DNA of 64,000 bases from Limisphaerales bacterium (lineage in GTDB: Bacteria > Verrucomicrobiota > Verrucomicrobiia > Limisphaerales > AAA164-E04), in NCBI GenBank assembly GCA_965203425.1, contig OZ241891.1, positions 1,583,127 through 1,647,126 of the forward strand. Reading direction: 5' to 3'. The notes beneath the pieces were generated by a model. The model worked only from the letters and a program-made list of their open reading frames with translations, was not told the DNA's origin and made no database searches. The translations under genes were made by a program, and so were the position numbers. Below, piece after piece: positions 1-58,656 of the stretch (within the stretch, counting starts at the first letter, position 1; each line of letters begins with the position of its first letter).

Positions 1-216
1 GGGAGCATTATTATTGGTGGAATCATTGGATCGACGTCTATTTGAACCTTGGGGATCTGCATCCTTTAACTGGCAGGCCGCTTACGGGAGTGACGCCTTA
101 CAGGGTGCATGCTTGGATTTCGCCGAGAGGCCCCGGCGAGTCGGGGGGTTATTACGTTCCCGTTCACTTTCGGCGATCATCGAGTTCCGAATGGGAGACG
201 CTTGGGAATTACTAAG

Positions 217-5608: not shown

Positions 5609-6543
5609 CTGAACTAGTTTCAAAATCTAAGAGACTGCGGATGCGAACCACTCCACGATGGAATCCACAAAGGCGATTTATGTTTTGGAGGAACGCTGAT
5701 TCGTCTGTCGTCCAGCGATGCTTGGGAATGCGTTCTGGCTTGGTGGCTGTCTCTGGCCGGATGCCTCGTCCATTCTCAAAATGGAAAAAGGGAAGAGGAA
5801 AGCAAGTTTTTTAGAAACGACCAAGCACGCCAAGAAGCGCGTCATCCCATCTTGCCGTTGTGGGAGGAAGTTTTGGTGGTTCGTGTTTTGTTGGGTTAGT
5901 AGTCAGTGCGGAAAGTGTGTTTTGTGGAGGAAGAGAATTTTGAATGAGGAACGGCGCATGGGAAGGGAGGGCAAAACTGCAAAGGGTGCGAAGATAGGGT
6001 TTTTAGTTTTGGTGATTGGGAATGCTTGGCTACGAACGTGCTGGTTTCTGGCTGTTGAGAAGTGAGGAAGTTTGTTGGTTTAGGTATTGGAGTTTTAGGA
6101 TGTGGATGAGAGGGGGAAAGGGAGAAGTGAATGGGGGGATGTGAAAGGGCAAATCACTGGGCGATGACTTTACAACAGGGCGGGGGACTTTGCTGTTTTT
6201 GCATTGCAAGCTGCTAAATGCTAATTATGGGTTGTATGGTGGTTGGTTTGGTGGGAGTCTGTAGAGAGAGTGGTTGGTTTTGTAAATCTGTTGGTTGTGT
6301 TGTCTTTGCTAAGGGGGAGAGGTTTTCTCGATGTTTGTTGGATGGGGTGGTTGCGGGGTTTGCGGGTTGTTCATTTTTTGGGGGATGGTTTTGGCGGTGG
6401 AGGGGATTTTTCGCGGGTTTTCTCTTTTTGTTTGGAAGGGGTTGTTGGGATTTGTTTCAGTTTTTTTGGGGGGGTTCTCGTTTTTGGTGTCTCTCTGTTT
6501 GTGGAAACGTGCGCCGGTTGTTTGTTGATGATTTTCCGGCAGT

Positions 6544-8316: not shown

Positions 8317-8858
8317 TACTGGGGAATTTGAAAAGTTTCTGATTGGCTAAATCTGATGCGGCGAGGTGAGTCGTTCCCATCGGCGCCGACGGCAATCTCG
8401 TTTGAATTCATTTGCAAGAGGCGGAGGTTGGCGATAACGACGTCGCCGAGGTCGACGGCTTTGAAGGCGCCGTTCACTTGCAGGAAGGCTTTTCGTTTTC
8501 CCGAACCCTGTTGGTAAATGCCTTGGAATTCGATTTTAATCTTCCGGGTTGGAGAGGCGGGTTTTGGAGCGGGCGAAACGGCCAGCGCAAAGTGGCGTGT
8601 AAAGAAGGGGGAGGCTTCGGGGTTTTGTTTTAGGAGCTCGGCCGGGGTGTTGACGAACTTCGGCAGTGTTGGGGCGTCGAGGTTTGTCTCTTCTGATAGC
8701 GTTGTTTTGTTTGGGATGCCGGCGCCGATATTCTGGACGGCGGCAAAGGAGTCTCGGATGGCCGCAATGGAATTCTGGATGACCGCCGCCCAGATGATTG
8801 TCAACAGACTCAGGGAGAAAATTGTGGTCAGTGTGTTTTGAGACATTTGCGCAGGCAT
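8316..8858 (-). CDS. PilP/GspC-HR-like small membrane-anchored pilus-assembly protein (hypothetical)
   Basis: Internal ATG of ORF 8316..8978. It has an N-terminal TM (TLTTIFSLSLLTIIWAAVI) and a C-terminal beta-rich module (IEFQGIYQQGSGKRKAFLQVNGAFKAVDLGDVVIANLRLLQMNSNEIAV), as in PilP. It sits between the PilO-like gene and the ATPase. Confidence 0.45.
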   Translation of the reverse strand: MPAQMSQNTLTTIFSLSLLTIIWAAVIQNSIAAIRDSFAAVQNIGAGIPNKTTLSEETNLDAPTLPKFVNTPAELLKQNPEASPFFTRHFALAVSPAPKPASPTRKIKIEFQGIYQQGSGKRKAFLQVNGAFKAVDLGDVVIANLRLLQMNSNEIAVGADGNDSPRRIRFSQSETFQIPQ

Positions 8859-8871
8859 ATAAATGGATTCG

Positions 8872-9771
8872 CTAGTTTTCTTGAGGTTCGGCGGTTTGCC
8901 GTTCGACGCTGGCCGGTTGTCGGTTGTCCTTCGTTTCGGCGGTTTTCTGTCTGGAAAGCGGAGGGATAAAACCCACAATTTTCATCCAAACGGAAACGTG
9001 TGCTGGTTTTTCGGGCGAGTTTTTTTGGATCAGGATTTGATCGACATACAAACTTGGTTTGTGGGGCAGGTAATCGATATTCAGATCTTTTTGGATTTCT
9101 TCGGCGCGGAGCGGGAGCATGAGTAGCAAGCGGAACAAAGAGCTGGAATCACAAGCGAATTGAATCTCGCTAATGACGGGAATGAGCGGCGGAGGGAGGG
9201 CTGCGTTGGCTGACGGAGTTCTTTGGCGTTGTACGGAAAGTTTGGAGATTGATTCGACGTCGGCGTAGATCATTGATTGCAGGAGGTGTTGCGTCAATGA
9301 GAGTTCGATCCAGAGGTAGTTGGGATCGGATAAGTCGCTGTGATAGGCGGGAAAGCCTTCAAACACGGAGGGAGGAATTCTGGATTGCCGGGTTTGGGCG
9401 AGTTTGTCGAGAGATTCGATGACTTCTTGTCGGTGGTTTTCGTAATCGACGAGTTGAAATTCAAGGCTTTTGTTTTTGTCTTGGTAAAAACTGTCGATTT
9501 CGATGCGGGAGAGCAGTGTTTGTTTGACGCTTTCCATATTGGGCGCCAATTGTTTGAGGCTTTGAGAGATGAGGTTGTAGTCGATTCGATCCGGCGCTTG
9601 TTTCTTGCGGTGGATTGTTTCGATCCGGCTCCACGTCTGGCGCAGTAGGGATTCTTTTTCTTTAGTTCGCACATTCAATGGGCGGTAAACAAAGAGGAAA
9701 TAGGCTAGGATCAAGCAGGAAATTGCCCAGCATCCCCGGTTGGATTGAGCCCATCGAATGATTGCGCGCAT
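8872..9771 (-). CDS. PilO-like bitopic protein (hypothetical)
   Basis: 299 aa with an N-terminal TM (CWAISCLILAYFLFVY) followed by a predicted coiled coil. The call rests mainly on operon position. Confidence 0.4.
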   Translation of the reverse strand: MRAIIRWAQSNRGCWAISCLILAYFLFVYRPLNVRTKEKESLLRQTWSRIETIHRKKQAPDRIDYNLISQSLKQLAPNMESVKQTLLSRIEIDSFYQDKNKSLEFQLVDYENHRQEVIESLDKLAQTRQSRIPPSVFEGFPAYHSDLSDPNYLWIELSLTQHLLQSMIYADVESISKLSVQRQRTPSANAALPPPLIPVISEIQFACDSSSLFRLLLMLPLRAEEIQKDLNIDYLPHKPSLYVDQILIQKNSPEKPAHVSVWMKIVGFIPPLSRQKTAETKDNRQPASVERQTAEPQEN

Positions 9772-9805
9772 TGTTTCTTCCTGTTTCTAGCCGCTCTTTT
9801 TTGAA

Positions 9806-11680
9806 TCAAGGAGTTTCCTTTAAGGAATCGCTTTGGGGATGGCGATCGCTGGGCAACGGGCTTGTTTTGGGACGGATTCCGGATTCTTGTCGATGGTCGG
9901 TTCCTCTTCGGTTTTCTTTGAATTTTTCCGCCTCGGCCGTCTTCCGGTTGGAATGAGCCGTTGGCGAGTCGGGGTTCAAGTGGAGATTGCGGTCGAAGTA
10001 GTTTCGGCGCAGTTCAAGCGAAAGCGCTGCGTGCCGTTCGCCGGGAAAGAGAATGTTCGTTTGGGCTAGCGGGCGGCGGAGGTCTTCGGCCAAAGTGTCG
10101 ACGTGCCGATAGATTTTGTTTTCGTTCAATCGGTTGACGAGGGAGAGCAACTTGGCTCTCATTGTTTCGCCTGAGTGGCGGAAGCTGAATTCGGCGACGA
10201 ATCCGGGTTTGCCGGCGAAGGGATTGGCGGGGGCAAGTTCGGGCGGCGCTTCCATTTTGTTGGAAGCGGTTGGGCTCGACGATTGAGAGTAATAGCTGTC
10301 GAAGTCGGCTAGAAGCACCAGCCAGTAAGCGGGGTCTTGGGCAACGAATTGCAGAGCGGCAAAGGTTTCGATCAATTCGGCGGTTTCTTGTTGAAGGCGG
10401 AGAATGGGGCGAACTTGCTCGTATTGCGCGGCAGATTGGGAAAGGGTTTTTTCTGTTTCCTGCATCTCTGCGATTACGAATTCGGCGCGCTGGATGTGCT
10501 TGTCGCTCATTCGGAACAAAACGGCGTTTTGCCAAGTTGCCAAGAGGAGAAGGAAAATTGTGGCGGCAGCGGCGGCGGCCGTCCAGCCTCGAAGACGGTT
10601 CCAGAAGAATTTCTGGTCTCTTCGTTGGCGGCAGGCTTGCGGAAGGAGCGAAATTTGGAGTTTTGCGAGGCCAAAGGCGGCGCGCGCAACGCCGAGCGCG
10701 GCGGAGAATTCTGAAGGCGCGCGGCGCTGTTTTGTTGATTTTCGGTTTTTGGCTTTTGGTTCTCCGCCGCTTTTTGATCGATGTTCTTCTTCGGGCAGGA
10801 TCACCGTTGCCTCTGTCCTTTTCCGAAGAAATGCCGCCGCCGGCTCAATCAATCCTTTTTCTCCCAAGAGAAGCAACCGATCCCGACGGGTTAATGGAAT
10901 CGTTTGCTGGGAGGCGCGAGGAACGGACGAGGGGAGGAGACGTTCTAGCCAACTTTCCAGCGCGTCCGCAGAGGGAGAAGGGTCGGCGGAGAATTCTGGT
11001 TGTTCTGACGGAAAACCGACAAGGGGAGAGGAAAAACTGGCGGCGAATTGGGGACGTCCGTCGCGGATTTGCAAAAGAGATGTGTGGCGCCGGCCGACGT
11101 CGACTGCCCAAACCGCGCCATCGGAATGTGTCAGGCTTTCAAAAGCACTCCAAAGTCCTTGAGCGGCGCTGGTCACGTCGTCCACGTCGTCAAAGTCCAA
11201 GCCGAGTGTTTGCAACCGTTGTTGGACGGACGGTTCTCGGCAATAAGTCAGCCACCATAGTCCGCCTCCGTTTTCTCGCTCGCCGTGTTCTTCGGGCATC
11301 GAGGATTTGGCAAGCGGCTGATGATCGAATACTAACTCGACGTCTTCAATTTTTTGGAAGCGCGCCGATTCGCCGGCGATAAATTCTTCAATGCTCTGCG
11401 TTTGGAGGGAGATTTGTTGGGAAACGGTTTCAGATTGCGGGAGGATCAGGTAAATGCGAATGGGATCGTATTGGGATCGCAGGTGTTTGACGGTTTCGGG
11501 GACGATGTCTTTGGCCGGCGCCAAGTGGTTGGGAATGGTGATGTGTTCTCGCACTTGAACCCGACTCAAGACGCGTTCGGCAATCAGGATGAGCGTTGCG
11601 GTTTCTCCCGGATCCAAAATCATCACCCGTTCCAGTGTCCAAAAGGAACAGCGGGCGAGTTTGGCAAGCTGGGCAAACAT
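9806..11680 (-). CDS. PilM-like / PilN-like fusion protein (hypothetical)
   Basis: Start moved to ATG 11680 (MFAQLAKL...), 6 nt downstream of the secretin stop. There is a cytoplasmic N-terminal half, then a basic linker, a single TM (WTAAAAAATIFLLLLATW) and a coiled-coil/periplasmic part like PilN. Confidence 0.5.
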   Translation of the reverse strand: MFAQLAKLARCSFWTLERVMILDPGETATLILIAERVLSRVQVREHITIPNHLAPAKDIVPETVKHLRSQYDPIRIYLILPQSETVSQQISLQTQSIEEFIAGESARFQKIEDVELVFDHQPLAKSSMPEEHGERENGGGLWWLTYCREPSVQQRLQTLGLDFDDVDDVTSAAQGLWSAFESLTHSDGAVWAVDVGRRHTSLLQIRDGRPQFAASFSSPLVGFPSEQPEFSADPSPSADALESWLERLLPSSVPRASQQTIPLTRRDRLLLLGEKGLIEPAAAFLRKRTEATVILPEEEHRSKSGGEPKAKNRKSTKQRRAPSEFSAALGVARAAFGLAKLQISLLPQACRQRRDQKFFWNRLRGWTAAAAAATIFLLLLATWQNAVLFRMSDKHIQRAEFVIAEMQETEKTLSQSAAQYEQVRPILRLQQETAELIETFAALQFVAQDPAYWLVLLADFDSYYSQSSSPTASNKMEAPPELAPANPFAGKPGFVAEFSFRHSGETMRAKLLSLVNRLNENKIYRHVDTLAEDLRRPLAQTNILFPGERHAALSLELRRNYFDRNLHLNPDSPTAHSNRKTAEAEKFKENRRGTDHRQESGIRPKTSPLPSDRHPQSDSLKETP

Positions 11681-11685
11681 GGGAA

Positions 11686-13869
11686 TCACGGTTTTGGCGC
11701 GGATGAAATGGCCGGTTCTCCTTCGTTCCAATCGCCGTTGGCGCCGAATTCGATGAATTCTCCGGTTTCAGAGAGCAATGTGGCGGTCACAAAAATCAAA
11801 AGATAGCGGGGTTTGTCCACTTCGGTGCGCCTTCTAAACGCCGCGCCAATAACGGGGATTTTGCCCAGAATGGGAACCGATTCGACGAAGGTGGATTGTT
11901 CCCGCTCCAGCACGCCGCCCATGACGACGGTTTGGCCGGACTGAACGATCACTCGAGTTTTTAGGGATTGAGTGCGTGATTCCGGCAACTTAATCTCAAT
12001 CGAGTTTCCGGTGGAATCCCTCACGGTGGCGAAGTCAACCAACTTCACTTCTTGATTCACTTCGGGATAAAGAGCCAAGTAAATCGTTCTTCCATCCCCG
12101 CCGATGCTGGCCATCACTTCAAGCGACACTCCCGAAGTAATTTCTTTAGGAGCGCCCTTCGGCACCAGCGTGGAAGCGATGTTGCGTTCGTTGACGGTCT
12201 GGGTGACGGTGTATTCTTCATAGTAGTTTTGGATTTTGCCGTCGGCAATCCGGGCGGGAAGGTTGTTGACCACCGTGATGCGGGGGGCGCTCAAGGTTCG
12301 GGTTTCTCCCTCTTGTTCCAAAGCCGTCAAGGTAAGGCTGAGGTTGGTTCGGTTTAGAATATTCCCGAAGGTTTCCTGCAGATTTTGTCCCACATTGACG
12401 TTTTCGGGGACAATATCAAGAAAGTCCGTGGGCGTCTGTCCTTCTTGCGGCGGACGGCCGGTTTCCCAAAGGGCGCCCAATTGCAGAAAAGCGGCTTCGG
12501 AGACGGTGATGAACCGGGCTTCGATCAACACTTGCTGGAGGGGGCGGTCGTATTCTTCGATGATTCGCTCCAGCACCGCCAACTGCTCGCGGGTGCCGGT
12601 AGCCAGAATAATGTTGCGCTCATAATCAATTTCGTATTCCGAGCCTTGAAAGAACTTTTGAATCGCCCGCTCAATGGAAGGCGTGCTGGGAACGCCGTCG
12701 CGGACAAAGGTTTGCGCTTTTTCGACCGTGACGGTTGTCACCGTGCCGTCTTTCGCTTTGGTTTCAGTTCGTTGGACTTCGTCGGCGCCAAAGATGGCGG
12801 GCAGGATGAATCCCTTTCGCAAGCGATAAATGCGGGTGTCTTCGATGGTTTTCTGTTCGTCTTGACCGTCCACGATCCAAATCAAGTCATCGCCGACTTG
12901 GAACTGAAGATCGAAGTTTCTGGAAACATAATCCAAAAACTCGCCTAATCGCACTTTTTCAAAGTTGAGACTCAATTTTTCTTGAAAGGCTTTGAGCGAG
13001 CGGTCGGCGACAAAATTAATGCTTTCGCTTTCGCCAATCTGAAAAATGACGGACTCCAAAGTGACGTCGTCCAATTTGACGGAAAATTCCTTGTCCAACT
13101 CTCTGGCCATTCGCCCGGCTTGGCTTTTGAAGTCGAACATCGGCGCGGAACGGGAAATCGTCTGGTTGTAAGTGCGGGGAACGTAGGGTCTGGATTCGAT
13201 GTCCAACACTGCGTCGCGGAGGTCTTTGCGCGGCGTCAACCCGCGGTCCGCCTGCTCGGTAAGCAAGCTTTCCACCGTGGGGCTGAAGACGGAGTTTTGG
13301 GAGTCAATCTTGCGAATGGTGTCTTCTAATGCTCGGCTTCTCAGAATTTCTTGTTGCTTTCCCACCCAATCGTGAACGCGGGCGACTACTGGGTCATTAG
13401 CGTTCTTGTCGCGCAATTGATTGGCGGCGATCATGGCCTCTTCCCATTGATTGTTTTTGGCCAGCTCAAAAATCTGCTTAATTTCCTCGTCGTAGCGGAT
13501 GCTGTATTGAGTCGCCTCCCTCTCCAAAGAAGAATGAGGTTGGATTGGTTTGCTTGCGGGCGGCCTTGTCGCAGAGGGATCCTTTGGGCTTTGGCAACCG
13601 ACAATGCACAACGTTGCCGCAAAAAAGGGGAGACCCTTTCCGCCGGGAAGTCGAAAGAGAGCCATCCAATCGAAAGTCCATCGGCAGATGCATTCAGTCT
13701 TTTTTAAAAGGCCGGAGTTTTTCATTCTTTGCCGAAAATCTTTGGCAGTTTTCTCGACGAAGAAAAAGGCCGAACGCGGGGAAGTTTTCCATTCTCGGCT
13801 CGTCAACCTCTTTTTGCCCCAACCGTTCCTGGAGTTGAGTTGTGCCATAGCGTTTTTGTGATGCCTCAA
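11686..13869 (-). CDS. secretin (PilQ/GspD family outer-membrane channel)
   Basis: The C-terminal secretin domain reads LIEARFITVSEAAFLQLG ... GQTVVMGGVLEREQSTFVESVPILGKIPVIGAAFRRRTEVDKPRYLLIFVTATLL. A lipobox-like LCIVGC lies near the N-terminus, so the true start is probably internal (MKNSG... or MALFRL...). Confidence 0.9.
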   Translation of the reverse strand: MRHHKNAMAQLNSRNGWGKKRLTSREWKTSPRSAFFFVEKTAKDFRQRMKNSGLLKKTECICRWTFDWMALFRLPGGKGLPFFAATLCIVGCQSPKDPSATRPPASKPIQPHSSLEREATQYSIRYDEEIKQIFELAKNNQWEEAMIAANQLRDKNANDPVVARVHDWVGKQQEILRSRALEDTIRKIDSQNSVFSPTVESLLTEQADRGLTPRKDLRDAVLDIESRPYVPRTYNQTISRSAPMFDFKSQAGRMARELDKEFSVKLDDVTLESVIFQIGESESINFVADRSLKAFQEKLSLNFEKVRLGEFLDYVSRNFDLQFQVGDDLIWIVDGQDEQKTIEDTRIYRLRKGFILPAIFGADEVQRTETKAKDGTVTTVTVEKAQTFVRDGVPSTPSIERAIQKFFQGSEYEIDYERNIILATGTREQLAVLERIIEEYDRPLQQVLIEARFITVSEAAFLQLGALWETGRPPQEGQTPTDFLDIVPENVNVGQNLQETFGNILNRTNLSLTLTALEQEGETRTLSAPRITVVNNLPARIADGKIQNYYEEYTVTQTVNERNIASTLVPKGAPKEITSGVSLEVMASIGGDGRTIYLALYPEVNQEVKLVDFATVRDSTGNSIEIKLPESRTQSLKTRVIVQSGQTVVMGGVLEREQSTFVESVPILGKIPVIGAAFRRRTEVDKPRYLLIFVTATLLSETGEFIEFGANGDWNEGEPAISSAPKP

Positions 13870-13912: not shown

Positions 13913-14524
13913 TCACGGCGAATGCGATGGAGGAACGGACATTGGGCGGAACTTCGCCGACCATTTTCGGATCGCCAATGCAATAACGCCGAGCGCAAGA
14001 AATAAGAGAACCAAGGCGATTGCCGGCCAGAGAGCGGACAGAATGGCCAATAGGGAGAAGGTGACCGCGCCGCCGGCTTCCATTGTTGAAAGCAGGGGAT
14101 TGCTCACTCCCCCGGTCGTCAAGGTAGAACCACCTCTCAGGCAGGCCGTCGTCGTGTGAAGAAGTCCGGCGGCGCCTCCTCCCGCAATGAGGGCGAGACT
14201 CCACTTCGACAAAGGGCTTAGGTCGCCGATCATCGAGGCGGAGAGAATCGTCCCCGCAATCACCGCTGCCGGCCCGGCAACGGCGTCCAAAAAGTTGTCT
14301 ACCCACGGAATGTAGTAAGCGAGAATCTCGCACGTTGCGGCGACGCCGAAGGCGATTAGCGCCGGAGAGCTTCCCAGCCATTGAAATCCTTCCGCAAGGT
14401 CCAGATACCCGAACTTGGCGGCAATGCCGGCGACTAGGGGGGGAAGGAATACCCGAAAGCCGCAGGCGGCGCTTAGTCCCAGCCCAATCATAATTCCCCA
14501 AAGAGTTTCTGCTGTAATGTCCAT
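13913..14524 (-). CDS. DUF4126-like integral membrane protein
   Basis: 203 aa, glycine/alanine-rich and polytopic (MIGLGLSAACGFRVFLPPLVAGIAAKFG...). The family name is from memory. Confidence 0.6.
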   Translation of the reverse strand: MDITAETLWGIMIGLGLSAACGFRVFLPPLVAGIAAKFGYLDLAEGFQWLGSSPALIAFGVAATCEILAYYIPWVDNFLDAVAGPAAVIAGTILSASMIGDLSPLSKWSLALIAGGGAAGLLHTTTACLRGGSTLTTGGVSNPLLSTMEAGGAVTFSLLAILSALWPAIALVLLFLALGVIALAIRKWSAKFRPMSVPPSHSP

Positions 14525-25854: not shown

Positions 25855-27285
25855 TTAGGCTAGGATTTTCGTTAGCACGTGGCCGTGGACGTCGGTAAGC
25901 CGCATGTCGCGTCCGCTAAAACGCACGGTCAAGCGGGTGTGGTCAATGCCCAGCAGGTGGAGCATGGTTGCGTGCAGGTCGTAAATTTCCACGCGGTTTT
26001 CGACGGCTTTGTATCCATATTCGTCAGTGGCGCCGTAGGCGGTGCCGCCTTGGACGCCGCCGCCGGCTAGCCAGATGGAGAAGCCAAAAGGGTTGTGATC
26101 CCTACCGTCGGCGCCTTGGGAGAAAGGCGTGCGCCCGAACTCTCCGCACCAGATGACTAAGGTTTCGTTCAAGAGGCCTCGGCTTTTGAGGTCGGCCAAG
26201 AGGGCGCCAATTGGTTGGTCTACCGCGCGGGCGTTGTTGGCGTGTCCGCGCAGCAGGCCGGAGTGTTGGTCCCAACGGTCGGCGCCGACGCTGGGGCAGG
26301 TCAATTCTATGAAGCGGACGCCTCGTTCCACTAATCGCCTGGCCAGCAGGCATTCTGTGCCGAAGGTTCGGGTGGCTTCGAACTCGGATTCCAAGCCGTA
26401 GAGCCGTCGCGTTTGAAGGGATTCGCTGTTTAGGGACATTAGTTCTGGCACTGCGGACTGCATCCGAAAAGCGAGTTCGTAGTTGGCAATGGCGGATTCA
26501 ACGGCGCTTGCTCGTCCCATCCGTTTTAGCGAGCTTCGGTCTAAGGCTTCCAAAAGCCCCAGTTTGTTTTGTTGGAGCCGTGGAGTTTTTTCTTTGGATT
26601 GGATATTTGCCACCGGCGGGTCAGAAGGGCGGAAGACGGATCCTTGAAATGTGGCTGGCAAGAAGCCGTTGGAGAAGTTGTCCAGTCCGCCCGGAGGCGT
26701 GAGACCTCCGTTGAGGACGACGAATCCGGGCAGGTTTTGGTTTTCGGTGCCGAGTCCGTAGGCAACCCAAGCGCCGGCGCTCGGCCGTCCGGACAGTCCC
26801 AATCCGGTATGCAAAAAGTAGTTTCCGTTGGTGTGTTCCGAGAATTCGGAGACCATTGAGCGGATAACGCATAGTTCGTCCGCTTGTTTGGCGACGTGAG
26901 GGAAGAGATCGCTGATTTCGATGCCGCTTTGTCCGTGTTTTTTGAATTCCCAATGTCCGCCGAAGGTGTTGCCGTTGTTGTTGAACTGGGTCGGCTCTAT
27001 TTTCATTTTGAAGGGTTGGCCGTGTTCGGCTTTCAATCGGGGCTTGGGATCAAAGGTGTCCATGTGCGCCGGCCCGCCGTCCATGTAAAGCATGATGACG
27101 TGCTTGGCGCGGGACGCAAAGTGCGGCGGCTTGGGCGCTAGGGGATTTGCTGCGGCTGAAGCCGAATCTCCGAGCGCTTGATTCTTGCTGTGCAGGAGGG
27201 ACAGCAGGGCAAGGCCGCCAAATCCATTGGAGCATCGGGAGAGCATTTCTCGGCGGCTGATGGGCTGATGGAATCTCGATTTCAT
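25855..27285 (-). CDS. DUF1501 domain protein (sulfatase-like, Tat signal)
   Basis: MKSRFHQPISRREMLSRCSNGFGGLALLSL, then a typical DUF1501 body ending ...RDMRLTDVHGHVLTKILA. Start moved to ATG 27285, directly after the upstream stop at 27288. Confidence 0.9.
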   Translation of the reverse strand: MKSRFHQPISRREMLSRCSNGFGGLALLSLLHSKNQALGDSASAAANPLAPKPPHFASRAKHVIMLYMDGGPAHMDTFDPKPRLKAEHGQPFKMKIEPTQFNNNGNTFGGHWEFKKHGQSGIEISDLFPHVAKQADELCVIRSMVSEFSEHTNGNYFLHTGLGLSGRPSAGAWVAYGLGTENQNLPGFVVLNGGLTPPGGLDNFSNGFLPATFQGSVFRPSDPPVANIQSKEKTPRLQQNKLGLLEALDRSSLKRMGRASAVESAIANYELAFRMQSAVPELMSLNSESLQTRRLYGLESEFEATRTFGTECLLARRLVERGVRFIELTCPSVGADRWDQHSGLLRGHANNARAVDQPIGALLADLKSRGLLNETLVIWCGEFGRTPFSQGADGRDHNPFGFSIWLAGGGVQGGTAYGATDEYGYKAVENRVEIYDLHATMLHLLGIDHTRLTVRFSGRDMRLTDVHGHVLTKILA

Positions 27286-27287
27286 GG

Positions 27288-30200
27288 CTAATCTAAGAAG
27301 ATGAATTCTTTGGCGTTGAAAAGAACGTGGCAAAAGTCTGACCAAGCTTGCCGGTTGCCGTTTTCTTTTTCTTCAATGTAAATTTTGCTTTGTTTTTGAA
27401 TAAATTCGAGTGCGAGGCGGTTTTCTTCCGGGGTTGGCTCCCTGCCTAAGGCGGCAAAGTAAGCGCGGGCGATCCGTTCTGCGGGTGCGGTTGTTTGGGA
27501 AAGCAGTTTTCCGGCCCAACTTGCGGCTTGGTGAATGCCAAGCGGGTCGTTCATAAGGATCAACGCCTGCGCAGGCACGTTGGAGACGGAGCGTTTGCCG
27601 AAGGTTGCGTGTGGGATTGGCGCGTCGAAGGCGAGCATTGCGGGGGAAAGAAAATTCCGCCGCACTTCTTGGTAAATGGTTCGGCGCCGCTCACCGTCTA
27701 AGGGGCCGTTGCGGCCTGGTCGCCCGCGCCCGGTCATAAATGGCGTCAAATGCACCGGCACCGGTTTCCCAAATTGCCTCAAATCCAAGTCACCGGAGAC
27801 AAGGAGCATGGCGTCGCGGATGGCTTCTCCTTCCAAACGTCGGATGGGCATTTTGTGGAACCAGCGATTCGTCGGATCCTGTTCGTCGGCGACGGCGTTC
27901 GGCTTGGAGGCCATTTGGTAAGTGGAAGAGGTGGCCAGCAGTCGAATCAATCGTTTGGAAGACCATTCGCCTTCGGTGACGAACCAATGAGCTAGCCAGT
28001 TCAAAAGATCTGGATGAGTAGGCTCTTCTCCTAATACGCCGAAGTTGTCCGGCGTTGGAACGATGCCGCGTCCGAAAAGGTGGTGCCAAATGCGGTTGAC
28101 ATACACTCGCGCCGTCAATGGATTCTGCGGGTGGGCAATGTGTTCCGCCCATTCGCGGCGTCCGGAACCTGCCTCACCAACCGGACGAAACGAATCCAGA
28201 GCTTCGAGGAATTTTCGAGGCGCGGTTTCTCCGAGCATTCTTGGATTTCCTCGGACAAACACGGCGGAGTCTTTCCCGGAACCCTCAACCATTGCCGGCG
28301 ACAACGTCGGAGGCGGAATTTGGTCGGCAATGGCAGTGTATTCGGCTTGGGCTTGATGAAATGGCTCTTCCCTGCCCGGCGCAAGTAGTAGTTCTTTTTT
28401 GGTCAGCCAATTCAGCCATTCTAGGTCTTCTAGGGAGAGCCGGTCGTTCGTTTTTTCGTTTTTTTGTTTTTTGTCAAAGTTCCATCGTTGGATTATTTCC
28501 AGCGTCTTTTGCTCGCAGGCCGCTAAAAAGTCCGCCGATTCCGCTCTCTCTCCGGCCAAACTTCGCAAATAGTTTTCCGGCACTGGCAGAGGAAGGGGCG
28601 GGGATGGCTTTGACGAGGCGATCCCTTGATAAACCGCAAACCATCCGTTGGCGCCGTAGTCGGCTCGGCCTCCGGCCAGATCGCCTGTCGAAGTGTCTTT
28701 GAGTTCGACGTATGCATTGCGCCCGCGCCAGCGGTTTAGGTCGAATGTGATCCAACGTTTCTCGGAGTGGCTTAGATGTTTCTTGAGTCCGCCGTAGATG
28801 GGGTTGCGAATCAGGTTGAAATTGTCGATCACAACGTTGATTCGGCTGTTCTCTCCCGACGCAAGCACGTGAAGATAACGCTCGCGGATGGCAAAGGTGG
28901 GCGAGCGCAGGCTTCCTTGAAAACGTTTAGAGTAGCGAGCGCTGTGAATGGACGGTTGCGTCTCCATCAAGACGGTTGCGTGAGCGCCGGAAAGCAAAAG
29001 TTCTCCGGCATTTGTTTGAGCGTCCACTAGTGCGGGTCCGTCAAAAAACCAGCCGCTCCATCCATTCGATTTAGCGTCCGCCATCCCGATGCCGAGTGTC
29101 TCCACCGCTTTTGCGGGCGCGTCCGAAAGTTTCTTTTCCTGCTTCTGCTGGCGGTTGTGGAAGATCGTTTGTTTTTCGGATTTGTCGGGATTGGCCGGCC
29201 TCGTCAACGCAAACAGGGGATGGCGCTTGCCAACGGATCGAGATTCATCCAGCGCTTCCACCCAACGATTCAGCAAAACGGGATGAAGTTTCTCCGTTGC
29301 GGCCTCGACAACAATTCGTTCCCAAGAGGGCAATGGCCGGTTTTGGAACCCGAAGAATTGCTTCCGTTCGCTAAAGACAAAGTGATCCGCCGCCACGTAT
29401 CCCCAGTCATCCGAAGCGTCGTCTTTGAGTTCGATTTTTGCTTGCCGTCCACGAAACTCCCGCACGTCCCATCGCTTCGGACGAAATTGATCATCTCGAT
29501 TCCCCGCCGCCATTCTCGCCGCTTTTCCGTCCACTAACAAATGAACGGAGACTCCCTTGGAGCCTCCGGAGATTAGAAAGTGAATGTAATCTCTTTGGAT
29601 GGAGAAGGATTTACTTAGAAGTCGGCCTCGATTTTGTTTCCCCTTCTCCGTTCCCGCGCTGTTTGAGCTGGCAAATCTTTGTCCCAAACCGCCGCCAAAA
29701 GACGCGCCGTTAGAGGAATTTTTGCCGTCGAAGGGGTTGTCGGCAAAAGCGTCTCCCTCGCCTTCCCATCGTTTTTCCGGGAATTTTTCAAAGTCTTCGA
29801 AGAGAATGTCGAGCGGAATCGCTTCCGTGTTCAGCGGGATGCTTTCGGATTCTTGAAAGCGGGCAGGAGAGCCGGCGGTAGATGCCAAGGACGGTTGATC
29901 TGCGCGGGAATCGGCAAGCAATCTGAGTCCTGCGCGGACGTATTCGGCCAACGAGTCGGCATTTTTCAGCCAGGCGATGAAGGCCGCTTCTCTTGCGGCC
30001 GTTTTCTTTGCCTTCAAGCGGTTTCTGAAACTGCCCCAAGTCTCCGGCGCGTCGACTGCCGCTTCGTGGTAGCGCGAGCTGCGCAACACGCCGTAGAGCG
30101 AGTAAAAATCCTTTGTCGAAATCGCGTCAAACTTGTGATCGTGGCAGCGGGCGCAGGAAATCGTCAGCCCCAAAAAGGTTTTTGAGAGAACGTCAATTTG

Positions 30201-31292
30201 GTTGTCGATCAAGTCCAGTTGGTTCATCTGAATGTCCACCGGAGAATGAACCTGCTGACCGAGCCAGTAAAAACCCGTTCCCATCCACGACTCGTTAGCG
30301 CCGTTCTCCGGGTTGCGTCGCGCTTCCTCCAACAAATCCCCGGCAATATGCTCTTTCACGAAAAGGTTGTAAGGCACGTCTTGGTTGAACGCCCGAATTA
30401 GATAATCGCGATACCGCCATGCATTGGGAATCTCGTAATCGAACTCGTGTCCCAGCGTCTCAGCATAGCGAACCAAGTCCAGCCAATGCCGCGCCCAGCG
30501 CTCCCCGAATTGCGGCGAAGCAAGCAAGCCGTCCACCAATCGCTCGTACGCTTGGGGATGGCCGTCCGCTTGAAAATTACGGATTGCCTCCGGAGACGGC
30601 GGCAAGCCGGTCAACGCGTAGGACAATCGTCGAATCAAAGACCGCTTGGATGCCCGCGGCGCCGGTGCCAATCCTTCGGTTTCCAAACGATGCAACACAA
30701 AGGCGTCTATCGGATTCGTCGACCAGTCGGCTCTTTCCACTTTCGGAGGAATCGCCTTTTTCACGGGTTGCCAAGCCCAGTGATTTTGTCGGCGTTCGGC
30801 AATGTCAAAAACAGGCTCTTTGCGTTCGTTCTTTGGCGTTGCCTGCTTCGGCCACGGCATGCCTAGGGAAACCCATTGCTTCAAATCGGCGATTTCCCGG
30901 TCGGACAGCTTCGACTTAGGCGGCATTTGCAAGTCCACGTTTTGATATCCAATGGCCTCGATAAAAAGACTGCCGGCCGGCTTTCCCGGAATGGCCGCCG
31001 GCCCGGAGTCTCCTCCTCTCAAAAAGCCTTCGCGAGAATCCAGCAACAGCCCGCCTTTGAGTTTCTCCGCCCGATGACTGTGACACTCAAAACATTTCGC
31101 TGCCAGCATTGGTCGAATCTTTTTCTCAAAAAACTCCAAGCCCTCGGCGGCAAAGGATTCTCCGAAAGCCTGCGGCGGCCAAAGCCCAACAACGGCCAGC
31201 AAAATCAACGCCGCCAAGCCGCGCGCGCCGAGTTGGGCGCGTTGGACAAAGTTCGGGCTCGCGAAGGTTGAAAACGGAGAAAGCCTTTGCAT
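27288..31292 (-). CDS. PSD1/PSCyt + DUF1549 + DUF1553 giant protein
   Basis: 1334 aa. Cytochrome-like [19 protein letters not shown]; DUF1549-like [42 protein letters not shown]; DUF1553-like [29 protein letters not shown]. This is the canonical partner of DUF1501. Confidence 0.9.
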   Translation of the reverse strand: [1334 protein letters not shown]

Positions 31293-39100: not shown

Positions 39101-39308
39101 AAAAGCAAAATCAAGCCCTCATTAAACGGAAAACCGACCGCCTTTGGCAACAATTATTCCCCAAAAAGCCAGCCGCCGGCGTCATGGCGAACTTTCAATT
39201 CATTTTTCGTTCCGCCAAAAACCAGCACAATGCCAAGCAACCCGTCTTTCTTTTAACCGCCAATGCTTTCCATAAAATGTTCGCGCTCATTATTTTTCAT
39301 TTTTTTGT

Positions 39309-39338
39309 TTGACAATGCTGTCGACGATGGTTTTTTAT
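39309..39338 (+). promoter_or_regulatory. sigma70-like promoter of PEP-CTERM paralog 1
   Basis: TTTTTTTGTTTGACAA (T-tract + TTGACA at 39309), shared verbatim with 57828..57841. A weak -10 TTTTAT lies at 39333. Confidence 0.35.
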
Positions 39339-39389
39339 TTTCAACAGTTTGTTCCATTATGTTCTCGACAATTCAAATTATCGCTTGCC

Positions 39390-40264
39390 ATGAAAATACC
39401 TCCCCCCCCCCCCCCCCCCCCGCAGCCGCCAAACGGTTGACCGTCGCCTTGCTTTTGACGGCAACTTTGCTTTCTTTGTCGTCAATTGAACAAAGCCAAG
39501 CGCAGCTGTACATCGACATCTATCCCAGCCAAGACAGCTCCAAAACCCATAGCCTCTGGGTTTTGAGCGGCGAATCCCAAGCCTCCATGTTTTTGAATGA
39601 AGCCGACAGCTACATCCGACACGGCGCCCTCGCCAGCGCACACCAAGCCAACGAACGCGACACCTACGAGCTCGAAGACCTCCTCTACGCCGGCCCCAGA
39701 GGCATCGGCAACTCTCCCCTTGCCTTTGGCTCTCTGTTTTCCTTGACCGCTCTTTCCCCTTCTTCCCTCGACTATGCGGGAGTCACCAACTTTTGGGCGG
39801 CCACCAACACCGTCTCCTCGCTTTCATCCGCGGCGGGAACGCCCACTCTTTCCTTCTCCAACCGAGTCGTCAACGGCGCGGTCACCAACCGAAGCATCAG
39901 CCATATGGCTATGTATGATCAGCCGGGGGGCAATAACTGGCTCGGTGTGCGCGTTGGCGGCGGCAGCAATCTCACCTACGGCACTAATCGTCCAACTGTC
40001 AACTGGGTCGGCGCCGGCTTGATCAACAAACCCATTGGCGACTTTCGCTCCCGCGATCCCTACATCCGCAACAAAGCCAACATCATCGGCTATTTTGGCG
40101 ACAACACCCTTGGCGGTGGACTGCGCATTCGCGTGCATTCGGCGACGGTTCCGGAACCCGAAGAATATGCGCTTGTGTTTGGCTTGTTTGCTCTCGCCTT
40201 TGTGATTTTCCGCCGCTGCTGCCCCAATTTTTTCTGCAGAAAAAGCGGAGTGAAAATGGATTGA
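39390..40264 (+). CDS. PEP-CTERM sorting-domain surface protein, paralog 1 (ATG 39390 out of frame with the body at C20)
   Basis: The body frame (ORF 39263..40264) encodes ...PPPPPPAAAKRLTVALLLTATLLSLSSIEQSQAQL... and ends VPEPEEYALVFGLFALAFVIFRR (PEP-CTERM). ATG-AAA-ATA-CCT-(C)n at 39390 would be in frame with 21 or 18 C. The upstream ATG 39359 is in frame at 20 C. Confidence 0.7.
39402..39421 (+). repeat. homopolymeric C20 tract inside the 5' end of a PEP-CTERM gene
   Basis: Counted directly: t + 9 C, 10 C, 1 C, then g at 39422. Confidence 0.95.
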
Positions 40265-44100: not shown

Positions 44101-44952
44101 ATGAGCCAAGGGAATCCTTACAAAGATTTTACAGACAGACTTCGGATCCTCGCCAGAAAACATCCTGATCTAATCACCACAACGTTAAGCAACATTTTCA
44201 CAATGCGCCTAATCGGAAACAAAACGCATGGAGACCTAGCAGAAATCGCCATGGCCGAATTCATCAATCAATACATGTACGATTTCCGCTCCGTGCATGT
44301 CGGCAAAGACTTGTACAGAGCAAAGTCCAAAGAGGAAGACATCAAAATCATCAACGAAATGACCCAAGTTGCATTTCCCGTCAGCCTGAAGGCCTATGGC
44401 GATGGACCTCTTCAACTTTCAACAGACAAAAACTTCAGAATGTTTCCACGGTTGGAACAGGAAGGCGCCGATATTGTAGGCAGAGAAAACATCGCGCTAT
44501 TGCTTGCCGATTCCGCTTTCTCTGATTTCCGAAGAATAAACGTCTTGCCCTTGATTTATGACGAGAAAGCTCAACGTTGCAACATTCTCGTTTTCGATTA
44601 TCATCGAGCAGAAACTAAAACGGTTAGAATTTCAAGAGAAACAGGCAATCGAGGAAGAAAGCATCCCGTCTATCGATTTTATGATTCCAGCAATGCCTAT
44701 ATTTGCGAAGTGCGCTACGGAAACGCGGCCGCCAACGCTCTCCAACGCGGACTATGGACTCACACGAAGAACGGTCTCAACTATTTTGACAGCATTACCA
44801 ACGGTTGGATTAACTACTCCCATAACCATGTTCTAGTTAAACTCTTCTCTCATGCGCTTGTTTCTTCTGAAATCGGCCATAGGAATGCTCTGGAAAAAAT
44901 CAAAGAAGACATTGTTCGACTCAAACAAAGATCCTATATTCCGCCAATCTAA
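44101..44952 (+). CDS. candidate type II restriction endonuclease (cognate to the downstream methyltransferase)
   Basis: 283 aa, no family recognised. Possible PD-(D/E)xK elements (HGDLAEIAMAEF ... EEDIKIINE ... VSLKAYG). Its stop overlaps the methyltransferase start (TAATG). Both genes are visibly AT-richer than their neighbours. Confidence 0.5.
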   Translation: MSQGNPYKDFTDRLRILARKHPDLITTTLSNIFTMRLIGNKTHGDLAEIAMAEFINQYMYDFRSVHVGKDLYRAKSKEEDIKIINEMTQVAFPVSLKAYGDGPLQLSTDKNFRMFPRLEQEGADIVGRENIALLLADSAFSDFRRINVLPLIYDEKAQRCNILVFDYHRAETKTVRISRETGNRGRKHPVYRFYDSSNAYICEVRYGNAAANALQRGLWTHTKNGLNYFDSITNGWINYSHNHVLVKLFSHALVSSEIGHRNALEKIKEDIVRLKQRSYIPPI

Positions 44953-46094
44953 TGCAAACACAGTCTTTCCTCTTAGATAATGGGATTCCTGATATTCCTT
45001 CGACCGAAGGCATAAAATATACAGGATCTAAGCGCAAGCTGCTCCCCTATATTCTTGTGTTGTCAAAGAAGACAGGCGCGCAAAGTGTTTTTGACGGCTT
45101 TGCCGGATCTACACGAGTCAGCCAAGCGTTTGCTCGCTCGGGATATGGAGTAGTATCCAACGACTTGGCCGAGTATTCCCGTGTTTTGGGCACATGCTAT
45201 CTAAAAAACAGAAAGCATCCGAAAGAATATCAACCGCTCATTGATCATCTCAATTCGCTACCTCCAGAAGACGGCTGGTTTACCAAGCATTACGGCGGCG
45301 AGGTCAATCCCGGCAACAAAGGCAACGCAATTCAAATCGACGGAACCAAGAAACCTTGGCAGAAGAAAAACACACGAAAACTCGACGCTATCCGGAGAGA
45401 AATTGACGCCTTGAAACTAGATAAGATTGCAAAAAGCGTGGCTTTGACAAGTCTGATTTTAGCGCTGGATCAAGTCGACAGCGCACTTGGCCACTTTGCT
45501 TCTTACTTGAAGGATTGGTCTCCCCGATCCTTCAAAGACTTAAAGTTGCAAGTTCCCCGATTGTGGAAGAACCAAACCACAAACACCGTGTTGCGCGGCG
45601 ATGTTTTTCAAGCGCTTTCTAGCATCAAAACCGACTTAGCCTATTATGATCCGCCTTATGGATCCAACAATGATAAAATGCCGCCTTCCAGAGTTCGATA
45701 CGCCTCCTATTATCATTTGTGGACTACTGTTTGTAAAAATGATTACCCGTCCTTGTTTGGCAAAGCCTTCCGTCGGCAAGACTCGTCCGACGAAGTGGCG
45801 TCTTCAATATTTGAGGAATTTCGCAGAAATGACTCTGGGAGATTTATTGCAGCAGAAGCTATTGAACGACTATTGAAAGAAACGCCATGCCCGTGGATTT
45901 TGCTTTCTTATAGTTCGGGAGGCAGAGCGGCGGCTGGGGAACTCAATGAAGTGATAGAAAATTGTGGCAAACTTGTGGAGATTGTGGAGGTGGACTATAA
46001 AAAGAATGTAATGTCATCTATGCGATGGACCCACCAATGGGCGCGAGAACTTGAGGAACCCAACAAAGAATTCCTGTTTCTAATAAGGAAATAG
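44952..46094 (+). CDS. Dam-like (D12 class, alpha-group) N6-adenine DNA methyltransferase
   Basis: IKYTGSKRKLLPYI, SVFDGFAGSTRVS (FxGxG, AdoMet binding) and YYDPPY (DPPY catalytic motif), with motif I before motif IV. Confidence 0.85.
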   Translation: MQTQSFLLDNGIPDIPSTEGIKYTGSKRKLLPYILVLSKKTGAQSVFDGFAGSTRVSQAFARSGYGVVSNDLAEYSRVLGTCYLKNRKHPKEYQPLIDHLNSLPPEDGWFTKHYGGEVNPGNKGNAIQIDGTKKPWQKKNTRKLDAIRREIDALKLDKIAKSVALTSLILALDQVDSALGHFASYLKDWSPRSFKDLKLQVPRLWKNQTTNTVLRGDVFQALSSIKTDLAYYDPPYGSNNDKMPPSRVRYASYYHLWTTVCKNDYPSLFGKAFRRQDSSDEVASSIFEEFRRNDSGRFIAAEAIERLLKETPCPWILLSYSSGGRAAAGELNEVIENCGKLVEIVEVDYKKNVMSSMRWTHQWARELEEPNKEFLFLIRK

Positions 46095-46115: not shown

Positions 46116-47369
46116 TCAAGTGAGCGGGTCTTCGGAAACAGAGCGGAGGACTTCTTCCAGGGGAATTTCGCCGGATGCGGCGCGGGTAATGCCGCTTTCC
46201 CAAAGTGTTTTCATGCCCTGTTCTTGGGCAATGGCTTGGAGTTTCCTTGTGCGGAACTTTTCCATTACGGCGTCGCGGATTGGCTCGTTGACGGCCAGCA
46301 TTTCCGTTAGGGCGGTGCGTCCGGCAAAGCCGGTTTCGTTGCAGGTGTCGCAACCGCCGCCTCGACGCCAAGTAGCATCGTCCAGCAGTGTTTTGGAAAC
46401 TCGCTTGAGCAACGCCGGGTCAGGCGGATAAGGCATGGCGCAGAGAGGACAGTTTTTGCGGACGAGTCGCAGTCCAAGAATGCCGATGATGCTGGAGGCG
46501 AGGAGGAAGGGCTCGATGCCCATGTTGATCATGCGGGCGAAGACTCCGGCAGTGCTGCCTGAGTGAATGGTGCTTATGACGAGGTGGCCGGTAAGGCCGG
46601 CTTGGACAGCAATGGCGGCGGTTTCGGGATCGCGAATCTCTCCGATCATGATGACTTGAGGGTCTTGGCGCATGAGGGAGCGAAGCGCGAGAGGATAGGT
46701 GAAGTCCCTCGCGATGTTGATTTGGGACTGGCTGATTTGCGAGAGGTTAAACTCCACCGGGTCTTCTACGGTGCTGATGCTGATGCTGGATCCGTGCTGT
46801 TCTACGAGGTGGCAAAGCGCGGCATAAATGGCGGTGGTTTTGCCGGAACCGGTTGGGCCGGTGAGCAAGAGCATTCCCGTTGGGCGGCTGAGCAGGTCTT
46901 TAAGAACGGTCGAAGTGTCAACCTCGAAACCCAGTTGTTCGATGTCGAAAGCGCGGCTTTTAGGATCAAAGATGCGAATAACAATCTTTTCTCCGCGAGC
47001 GAACGAATGGCCAACGCCTCCGCGAATCACCGGAAAAAACGAAAGCCGAAGCTCCACGCCTCCCTCGCCCGTAGTCGCCCGAGCATGCCCTTCCTGCGGA
47101 CGATCGGTTTCGTAGTGGACCAGATTCGCCATGACTTTCAAACGCGCCGAGATTTTCTCGGCCAGTTCCAGAGGCAAATGCTCAAACTCCCTGAGAACGC
47201 CGTTGAGACGGAAACGGATTATGAGACTTTCCTCCCACGGCTCGACGTGAATGTCGCTCGAATTCGCGTCAATAGCGTCTAAAATAACGCATTCGACTAT
47301 TTGAGCGATATCGATCTCTTCAAGGCTCGGACTTTGTTCGACAATCTGGCGCGTTCGATTCACAATCAA
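46116..47369 (-). CDS. GspE/PilB/PilT-superfamily secretion ATPase, short form without N-terminal domain (orphan)
   Basis: 417 aa. LLLTGPTGSGKTTAIYAAL, DPQVIMIGEIRD, TGHLVISTIHSG, CPLC...CDTC. Confidence 0.85.
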   Translation of the reverse strand: MIVNRTRQIVEQSPSLEEIDIAQIVECVILDAIDANSSDIHVEPWEESLIIRFRLNGVLREFEHLPLELAEKISARLKVMANLVHYETDRPQEGHARATTGEGGVELRLSFFPVIRGGVGHSFARGEKIVIRIFDPKSRAFDIEQLGFEVDTSTVLKDLLSRPTGMLLLTGPTGSGKTTAIYAALCHLVEQHGSSISISTVEDPVEFNLSQISQSQINIARDFTYPLALRSLMRQDPQVIMIGEIRDPETAAIAVQAGLTGHLVISTIHSGSTAGVFARMINMGIEPFLLASSIIGILGLRLVRKNCPLCAMPYPPDPALLKRVSKTLLDDATWRRGGGCDTCNETGFAGRTALTEMLAVNEPIRDAVMEKFRTRKLQAIAQEQGMKTLWESGITRAASGEIPLEEVLRSVSEDPLT

Positions 47370-57724: not shown

Positions 57725-57834
57725 AACTGCATTTACCCAAGCGCAAAGCATTCAAAAGAAAAGCCAAGCCCAAGAATCCAAGAAAATCCTCACGAAAACC
57801 TCAGAAAAAATGCGGAGAATTTTTCTTTTTTTGT

Positions 57835-57863
57835 TTGACAAACGTTGGCAACAAGGCTTTAAT
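57835..57863 (+). promoter_or_regulatory. sigma70-like promoter of PEP-CTERM paralog 2
   Basis: TTGACA (57835) - 17 nt - TTTAAT (57858). The upstream T-tract and -35 are identical to those of paralog 1. Confidence 0.4.
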
Positions 57864-57935: not shown

Positions 57936-58656
57936 ATGAAAATCCCCCCCCCCCCCCCCCGCATCCCTAAACCGTAAGCCATTGTCCCTTGGTGTCTTCG
58001 TAACAACGGCCTTGCTTTCCTTTGCCTCGATTGAGCAAAGCCAAGCGCAACTCCTCCTTACCGTCAATCCTCTCCAAACCGACACCAACTCAACCGTCTG
58101 GACTTTCTCCGGCAGCTCCACCGCCTCTCGATCCGGCAACATCACCACAACGCAATCGGTTTTAATAAATTTCGAGACGGTAGGAAGCATAATTCCCTAC
58201 ACCTCCGGCGGCGCTTCGATCTTCACGGTGGGAAGTAGTGCGGTCGATCATTCTTTAGCAGCCAATTCTGCCAGCCTGCCTCAGATCACCACCCCCTCCG
58301 GCGCCCGAACCATCAGCCATATTCATCTGGAAAAAGACGAAAGCGTGGACATCGTGGGCATTCGAGTCGCAGCAAGTTCGCTCAGCTATTCCACAAACGA
58401 CCTCGTCTCGTGGAGCGGGCAAGGCACCTTGTCCCACTCCATCACCAACTTTGCCGTCAACGCTGCCGGTGAGTATTATTACAACTACATTTTCGGCCCT
58501 TATTATGCGGCCGCCGGCACTTCGGGCGTGCCGAGTTCCGGCGGCCTTCGAGTGGTAGTTTCCAGCTCGCCCACGCATTTGGTTCCCGAACCACAAGAAT
58601 ACGCTCTCATCTTCGGCTTATTTGCGCTGGGTTTTGTCTTCTTTCATCGCCGGTGA
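57936..58656 (+). CDS. PEP-CTERM sorting-domain surface protein, paralog 2 (ATG 57936 out of frame with the body at C17)
   Basis: The body frame is open from 57940 and reads K-S-PPPPP-ASLNRKPLSLGVFVTTALLSFASIEQSQAQL..., ending VPEPQEYALIFGLFALGFVFFHRR. The only ATG (57936, ATG-AAA-ATC-(C)n) is in frame with 16 or 19 C. The ORF track could only offer TTG 57982, which removes the basic n-region. Confidence 0.7.
57944..57960 (+). repeat. homopolymeric C17 tract inside the 5' end of the second PEP-CTERM gene
   Basis: Counted directly: aat + 7 C, 10 C, then g at 57961. Confidence 0.95.

Follow-up and report, generated by a model that had tools for sequence, protein, structure and literature searches.

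How does a gene come to carry twenty consecutive cytosines just behind its start codon, at a length that leaves this start codon out of frame with the protein it should begin? The question is raised by a locus, here called gene A, in a 64-kb stretch of DNA (64,000 nucleotides, hereafter the window) from contig OZ241891.1 of an uncultured bacterium of the order Limisphaerales, where an earlier note made from the letters alone had proposed that a poly-C tract stochastically switches a surface protein of the PEP-CTERM type. We find that the tract is one of many repeats at the 5' ends of a very large gene family, and repeat-mediated translational phase variation by slipped-strand mispairing, acting across that family, is in our judgment very probably the best explanation. 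On/off control of translation by repeat number is a general mechanism that has been reviewed (PMC5320596).

Tract length and reading frame in two window genes

The canonical start codon of gene A (MKI..., 39390..39392, + strand) opens the sequence ATG AAA ATA CCT, which is followed by a run of exactly 20 C (39402..39421, + strand), the proposed slipped-strand switch. At this length translation from the ATG is abortive and ends after 16 codons (39390..39440, + strand; product MKIPPPPPPPPQPPNG, TGA at 39438-39440), and the signal peptide and PEP-CTERM tail lie in another frame, that of the long open reading frame (ORF) at 39263..40264 (+). When a series of tract lengths was compared, full-length product from the canonical ATG was obtained only at C18 and C21, which join it to the long ORF as a precursor of 290/291 amino acids (aa). 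At C20 the long ORF can also be read in frame from a further ATG upstream (39359..39361, +), kept in the syntenic orthologues of gene A, and the precursor would then have 301 aa and a long n-region. The earlier note had read the tract, the out-of-frame ATG, the premature stop, the displaced signal peptide and tail, the lengths that would join the frames and the in-frame second ATG in the same way, and each of these readings was reproduced. Because ATG 39359 is in phase at C20, gene A is perhaps not fully off, and use of this putative start may give an N-terminally extended precursor.

In the mechanism that we propose, C20 would be a hypermutable simple-sequence repeat lying where the gene encodes the leader peptide of a secreted protein with a PEP-CTERM-type anchor. 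Slipped-strand mispairing during replication would add or remove C residues, presumably reversibly within a population, and the resulting length would decide whether any start codon, and which one, shares its frame with the signal peptide and the mature domain. Only at lengths of 3k (C18, C21) would reading from ATG 39390 continue into the signal peptide and the mature protein; at other lengths translation from this ATG would end after 16 or 32 codons, and at 3k+2 (the present C20) the conserved ATG 39359 would be in frame, so that there may be more than two switch states. The state of gene A in the assembly would then be either 'off' or 'on with a longer n-region'. Such a tract lies far beyond chance: under a first-order Markov model the expected number of runs of at least 20 nucleotides (nt) in the window is 7e-8. 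The window (G+C 52%) has only two homopolymers longer than 8 nt, C20 (39402-39421) and a C17 run (57944-57960), apart from which its longest C run is 6.

The C17 run belongs to a second gene that the earlier note had not mentioned (57936-58656), a paralogue of gene A that we call gene B. Its canonical ATG (MKI..., 57936..57938, +) is followed 8 nt on by the tract (ATG AAA AT-C17; 57944..57960, +), which leaves it out of frame, and in the tract-length series gene B is in frame from this ATG at C16 or C19, with a 239/240-aa precursor. The rest of the gene (57961..58656, +) encodes a signal peptide, ASLNRKPLSLGVFVTTALLSFASIEQSQA/QL, a mature domain and the tail VPEPQEYALIFGLFALGFVFFHRR (58582-58653), and the protein aligns with the family. 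Gene B is without an alternative start and is off at C17. ATG 39390 of gene A corresponds by homology to the start ATGAAAAT in gene B and in other members of the poly-C class described below. Both genes have the start context TTATCG...CATGAAAAT and, further upstream, a conserved, promoter-like T-rich stretch with a TTGACA box (39293..39314, +, in gene A and 57820..57840, +, in gene B).

Once the frame is restored, the N-terminus reads as a candidate Sec signal peptide, with KR as its basic n-region along with a hydrophobic core and the motif AQA/QL. The part of the signal peptide beyond the tract (AAAKRLTVALLLTATLLSLSSIEQSQA, 39422..39502, +) is read from the sequence, and cleavage is predicted before QLYIDIYPSQD, at the start of a mature coding region of ~255 aa (39503..40264, +, stop TGA at 40262-40264). 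A PEP-CTERM-like sorting signal with a PEP motif, a hydrophobic helix and RR, again read from the sequence, lies at 40148..40222 (+; VPEPEEYALVFGLFALAFVIFRR), and the order of PEP motif, hydrophobic transmembrane stretch and basic cluster is present in gene B as well. In the family alignment the P, E, P, E, Y and A of the tail are invariant, and the hydrophobic helix, the basic cluster and the AQL motif are invariant or nearly so. The signal differs from the described PEP-CTERM/exosortase system (TIGR02595; Haft et al. 2006) in a model score just under the cut-off and, in gene A, a 15-residue tail after RR. Pfam and NCBIfam searches found no domain besides sub-threshold PEP-CTERM matches. The AlphaFold2 model of the gene A protein (predicted local distance difference test score, pLDDT, 78.8; predicted template modeling score, pTM, 0.73) is rich in beta structure and has a C-terminal helix as well as two short ones, and comparison of the model with the PDB gave no significant fold match (best E-value 0.05, template modeling score 0.2 or less). 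The proteins of the family are presumably located at the cell surface.

Leader repeats across the family

At the protein level 127 relatives were found, spread over many ENA contigs and three complete chromosomes of 4.23, 4.31 and 4.52 Mb. A scan of species-representative genomes found 155 family members in two chromosomes deposited as 'MAG: Limisphaerales bacterium' (OZ251460.1 and OZ242022.1; MAG, metagenome-assembled genome), which belong to the order Limisphaerales of the Verrucomicrobiota, in the Planctomycetes-Verrucomicrobia-Chlamydiae (PVC) group; the best 80 of these 155 were taken for the analysis of loci. Related Limisphaerales have ~75-80 paralogues per genome and the family is lineage-restricted. 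No relative was found when JGI metagenomes were scanned with the gene A protein, and exact-protein look-ups with the window genes found no other assembly of the same strain. The predicted N-termini of many relatives contain poly-proline (MKIPPPPPANRKPL...) or poly-glycine within the signal peptide (...CLCGGGGGVANAQL). Automatic gene calls (proteins P0001-P0120) are mostly wrong at the 5' end, with internal starts past the repeat or upstream ATGs in the wrong phase, so the layout of repeat and start codon is hidden in public annotations.

A hypermutable leader repeat is present in 73 of the 80 loci. At 56 of them it is a C run (9-27 nt) or a G run (9-23 nt) at the 5' end of the gene, and no further G or C run of at least 8 nt occurs anywhere in these loci, each taken at 3.7 kb. 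In the poly-C class, which includes both window genes, the ATG is followed by 2-15 codons, Cn and then GCA..., so that the tract sits in the n-region ahead of the basic residues and hydrophobic core. In the poly-G class (ATGAAACGAAAACTATCTTTATTGGCC...TGCCTTTGC-Gn-(T)ACAACGCCCAAGCGCAGTTG) the tract ends the hydrophobic core, just before the AQAQL motif. Most of the 24 seemingly tract-less loci have frame-shifting tandem repeats of 7 or 8 nt at the equivalent leader position (17 loci), with the units GGCAAGCG x2-7, GACAAGCG x3, ACAGCGA x36, ACAACGCA x19, TCGGGCA x2-7 and GAACTGC x9. Long examples (ACAGCGA x36, ACAACGCA x19, GAACTGC x9, TCGGGCA x4-7, GGCAAGCG x3-7 and GACAAGCG x3) follow the ATG and precede the signal-peptide core in members that have no homopolymer, namely L011, L028, L061, L036, L074, L079, L018, L050, L004 and L025 (5' regions, about 1150-1560 of each locus). 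There are thus at least eight repeat motifs family-wide: C, G, three 7-mers and three 8-mers.

Two variants of this layout were seen. In L035 (1294-1335; OZ242022.1) a G17 run stands directly behind a conserved T-rich/CTTGAC box, ~125 nt upstream of an in-frame ATG, and the coding poly-C is reduced to CCCC; from its position this run may be a promoter-spacer, and hence transcriptional, variant of the switch. In L034 (1495-1511) and L090 (2490-2510) the tract is directly preceded by two ATGs that differ in phase (ATGAATCATGAAA...), so that in some copies two phases out of three may well yield a full product.

The composition of the tracts bears on what is being selected. They are pure CCC or pure GGG, whereas in 14 other window genes CCC makes up 34% of proline codons and GGG 12% of glycine codons, which argues for a constraint on the DNA and not on the peptide. 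Selection for a poly-proline or poly-glycine peptide was considered as the main cause and rejected, as such pure codon use is unexpected under it.

A T-rich stretch with a [TC]TGAC box lies upstream of the repeat in 77 of 82 family loci, compared with 40 of 445 background windows. With their own upstream box and their own start codon the copies look like independent expression loci and not promoterless cassettes. Gene conversion from silent cassettes of the pilS or vls type was likewise considered, and is unlikely because nearly every copy has both elements. Under our proposal nearly every copy would carry its own promoter-like box and a frame-shifting repeat between start codon and signal-peptidase site, most would be off at any one time, and the outcome would be a combinatorial repertoire in which the surface proteins on display vary stochastically, as they do with Opa.

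Segmental duplications of 1-3 kb with 99.1-100% identity carry family genes and their flanks within one genome (L006-L010, L042/L044, L055/L064, L069/L072, L068/L071 and L043/L045), and the family is apparently growing, or being homogenized, through recent duplication or gene conversion. The ENA contig labels read PANK22-1_SAMN1229xxxx, and Caribbean sponge metagenomes were deposited by a 2022 Pankey/Lesser study; going by the label and by the existence of these metagenomes, the PANK22-1 contigs possibly come from sponges.

Length polymorphism, frame states and competing explanations

The earlier note had proposed comparing tract length in related strains or metagenome bins; in the relatives compared here the length varies. 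Syntenic orthologues of gene A, which keep the order FeoB-FeoA-ADK-like, gene, Amt-GlgB on well-conserved flanks, range from C7 to C20. Gene A (C20), L087 (C17) and L001 (C15) are off from the canonical ATG, and L082 (C15), L081 (C11), L085 and L086 (both C9), L084 (C7) and L002, where the tract is interrupted (CTCCTCCCC), are on. This last orthologue (L002:1501-2345, OZ242022.1), in which the tract as such is lost, has an extra mid-gene frameshift and its ORF ends 174 codons past AQL, as the result of either pseudogene decay or faulty assembly. Alleles differ as well. In one 90% protein cluster the same allele is present as a full-length and as a truncated call, and in two metagenome assemblies L088 (Logan SRR18249429) and L089 (ENA ERZ23496354) match at every position of the 855-nt gene and of 118 nt upstream save for C15 (on) versus C13 (off), with four other differences that are all downstream of the gene. 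Recent duplicates within a genome differ essentially only in the tract: G11 versus G12 in L069/L072 (3089 nt, 0 mismatches), C13 versus C10 in L007/L010 (3110 nt, 1 mismatch) and G19 versus G18 in L055/L064 (2757 nt, 3 mismatches).

Could these lengths simply be homopolymer errors of sequencing or assembly, hiding a true tract that is in frame and encodes a plain poly-proline linker (poly-glycine in some relatives) with no switching? Long-read consensus is notoriously weak at long homopolymers, the sequences of the window and of its nearest complete relatives come from MAG chromosomes, and both window tracts are only one or two bases off. Yet the frame states across the family do not have the shape that such errors should produce. 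The canonical ATG is in frame at only 10 of 56 homopolymer loci and the remainder divide equally between those that need -1 and those that need -2 (23 versus 23), so the calls are not skewed systematically, up or down, from a true in-frame length. Of the 17 loci with 7- or 8-nt repeats, which are not prone to this kind of error, 15 are out of frame as well and 2 are in frame. Both states are moreover seen in scaffolds of separate metagenome assemblies, paralogue tracts differ by up to 3 nt, and the pure codon use described above would not be expected from selection on a linker peptide. We therefore regard consensus error as a very unlikely explanation of the pattern.

A second possibility leaves the DNA lengths as they are and places the correction in expression: slippage of RNA polymerase, or ribosomal frameshifting on CCC-C, would yield a constant in-frame fraction, and the genes would be expressed constitutively at a low level whatever the tract length. 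Homopolymers of at least 9 nt are established to promote transcriptional slippage and CCC-C is prone to +1 frameshifting; gene A would need a shift of -1 (or +2) and gene B one of +1, and recoding would explain why out-of-frame copies have intact ORFs. It would, however, leave unexplained why 7- and 8-nt repeats occupy the same position and why DNA-level length changes rapidly between otherwise identical alleles and paralogues. As a sole explanation we consider recoding improbable, with a small but appreciable chance of being correct; it could also coexist with DNA switching, to which either kind of slippage would plausibly add some leakiness.

The abundance of out-of-frame copies also raises the question of whether they are decaying pseudogenes of an expanded family, their repeats being mutational debris. 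Most copies are indeed out of frame (when any upstream ATG is allowed, only 12 of 58 homopolymer loci are in frame, with gene A of the window counted through ATG 39359), and the tract-less L002 has its additional mid-gene frameshift. Against decay, 56 of 58 homopolymer loci and 17 of 17 loci with 7- or 8-nt repeats regain a full-length ORF when nothing but the repeat length is changed, and the two unrestored homopolymer loci are those without an identifiable upstream ATG. Orthologues at a synonymous divergence (dS) of 0.2-0.6 keep intact ORFs of ~250 codons with ratios of non-synonymous to synonymous divergence (dN/dS) of 0.23-0.74, the repeats always stand at one functional position, and start codons and upstream boxes are conserved. 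On these sequence comparisons the 'off' copies are apparently not dead and their coding potential is maintained, and we hold general pseudogene decay to be highly improbable.

Repeat-mediated phase variation would account for these observations together, but several results weigh against it or narrow what it can claim. Overall 14 of 75 loci (~19%) are in frame, less than the one third (33%) expected under free drift (one-sided binomial p = 0.004, with loci that are not independent), and this deficit would require extra selection for 'off' or permanent silence of some copies. Several copies with 8-nt repeats hold only two units, for which slow switching is expected. All tract lengths are assembly consensus, the window and the two reference genomes being complete-chromosome MAGs, and as MAG consensus of 15-27-nt homopolymers can err by 1-2 nt, the on/off call at any single locus is uncertain, C20 included. 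L088 and L089 are possibly two assemblies of one sample, in which case their difference is either assembler noise or real heterogeneity. A sigma-70 consensus scan upstream of genes A and B called no full promoter, so the conserved T-rich/TTGAC box is only promoter-like and we infer its promoter role. On the protein side, no exosortase gene was present among the 20 window ORFs scanned, and TIGR02595 scores 14.7 bits against gene A, under its 16-bit cut-off, although with a model only 24 positions long this is a near miss and not an exclusion; the model does not match gene B, and across the family it matches 11 of 35 members at E-values of at most 0.1 (best 0.024).

Set beside these points are four features of contingency loci that are found here: a repeat of hypermutable length (for homopolymers ~8 nt or more), a position that alters the frame, polymorphism among close relatives on conserved flanks, and coding potential kept in the 'off' state. 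The suggestion of switching that the earlier note had made for gene A is strongly backed by the tract in gene B, the repeats in 73 of 80 loci, the length differences among orthologues, alleles and paralogues, the intact frames and a dN/dS below 1.

Known systems and the meaning of a putatively switchable family

Among known systems the Opa proteins of Neisseria are multi-copy surface proteins with their own promoters and a frame-shifting repeat in the signal-peptide coding region; repeat number sets translation on or off, most copies being off. The present family is similar in its multiple copies, each with its own promoter-like box and frame-shifting leader repeat, most of them out of frame. 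Opa differs in having a single repeat type (the CTCTT pentamer), ~4-12 copies and a beta-barrel outer-membrane protein, in a human pathogen, whereas here an uncultured Verrucomicrobium has ~75-80 copies per genome and at least eight motifs, and the protein is unrelated, beta-rich and ends in a PEP-CTERM-like tail. The vlhA genes of Mycoplasma gallisepticum are tens of surface-protein paralogues, each gated by its own simple repeat. They share with our family a very large number of paralogous surface proteins and one simple repeat per copy, but their GAA repeat lies upstream of the promoter and acts on transcription, unlike the leader-peptide frame shift proposed here; in L035 a G17 run stands in the promoter-like spacer instead.

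In Helicobacter pylori (Hop/OMP genes such as sabA, oipA, hopZ and babB) and in the poly-G genes of Campylobacter jejuni, 5' tracts of CT dinucleotides or of homopolymeric G/C switch surface structures (PMC3960876, PMC4965091, PMC8355987). The likeness is in the 5' coding-region tracts and, on our proposal, in slipped-strand on/off switching of surface structures; the difference is that these species have ~10-30 loci distributed among numerous unrelated families of genes, and most of their tracts measure 8-13 nt, whereas here one family holds nearly all tracts seen (none elsewhere in ~360 kb sampled) and they reach 27 nt. The Verrucomicrobium Akkermansia muciniphila likewise has mononucleotide repeats proposed as phase-variable: 17 genes were reported to carry homopolymers of more than 8 bp at their termini, with short tracts (G8, C10) and with capsule-synthesis genes highlighted, and no link was drawn between the tracts and the 21 PEP-CTERM proteins of that genome (PMC3048395). 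The earlier note was unaware of such a mechanism in PEP-CTERM proteins or in PVC bacteria. For PEP-CTERM-type proteins this holds in the literature searched, where neither PEP-CTERM proteins nor this family turned up as subject to repeat-based switching; for PVC bacteria it does not, the Akkermansia capsule genes having been proposed earlier (PMC3048395). The mechanism is thus well known in kind, and it is the protein family, the lineage and the scale that are new or unusual.

Other parts of the window hold two much shorter runs, which fall far below the family tracts in length. At 6461-6474 an intergenic T7 is directly followed by G7 downstream of a T2SSE ATPase gene, and at 14437-14443 a G7 (C7 on the coding strand) lies ~80 nt into a 203-aa ORF (13913-14524, -). 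Type II secretion or type IV pilus-like genes are found at 6544-13869 (-), 46116-47369 (-) and 109-1041 (+), a set that comprises two T2SSE ATPases, a secretin and a pilin-like protein with an N-terminal-methylation motif. Genes typical of the PVC group (PSCyt1/PSCyt2/PSD1 and DUF1501) occupy 25855-31292. A D12-class N6-adenine DNA methyltransferase gene (44952-46094, +) adjoins a 283-aa ORF without a Pfam match (44101-44952), with which it may form a restriction-modification pair.

More tentatively, and with a little less than even confidence, we suggest that the window holds two members of what is possibly the largest repeat-gated surface repertoire yet, with ~75-80 independently switched paralogues per genome in uncultured, possibly sponge-associated Limisphaerales. 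At least eight motifs would act at one position, some switches would have three states and one tract would work in a promoter spacer; most copies would be off and each cell would display a small random subset. The organism would not be a pathogen, and the selective pressure would presumably come from phages or host phagocytes and not from adaptive immunity.

Phase variation driven by repeats is known from the textbooks in a few host-adapted pathogens; here the same kind of switch would operate in an uncultured Verrucomicrobium, environmental or symbiotic. With dozens of switchable paralogues per genome, the scale here rivals or exceeds that of the classic systems and, if our reading is true, the evolution of contingency loci would be a general solution that reaches beyond pathogens. 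It would also flag an annotation problem, since gene callers cut short or mis-start most members of the family, and would mean that homopolymer 'errors' in MAGs can be biology. For PEP-CTERM surface proteins themselves, it would offer a clue to their role, as variable structures that are probably exposed to phages or to a host.

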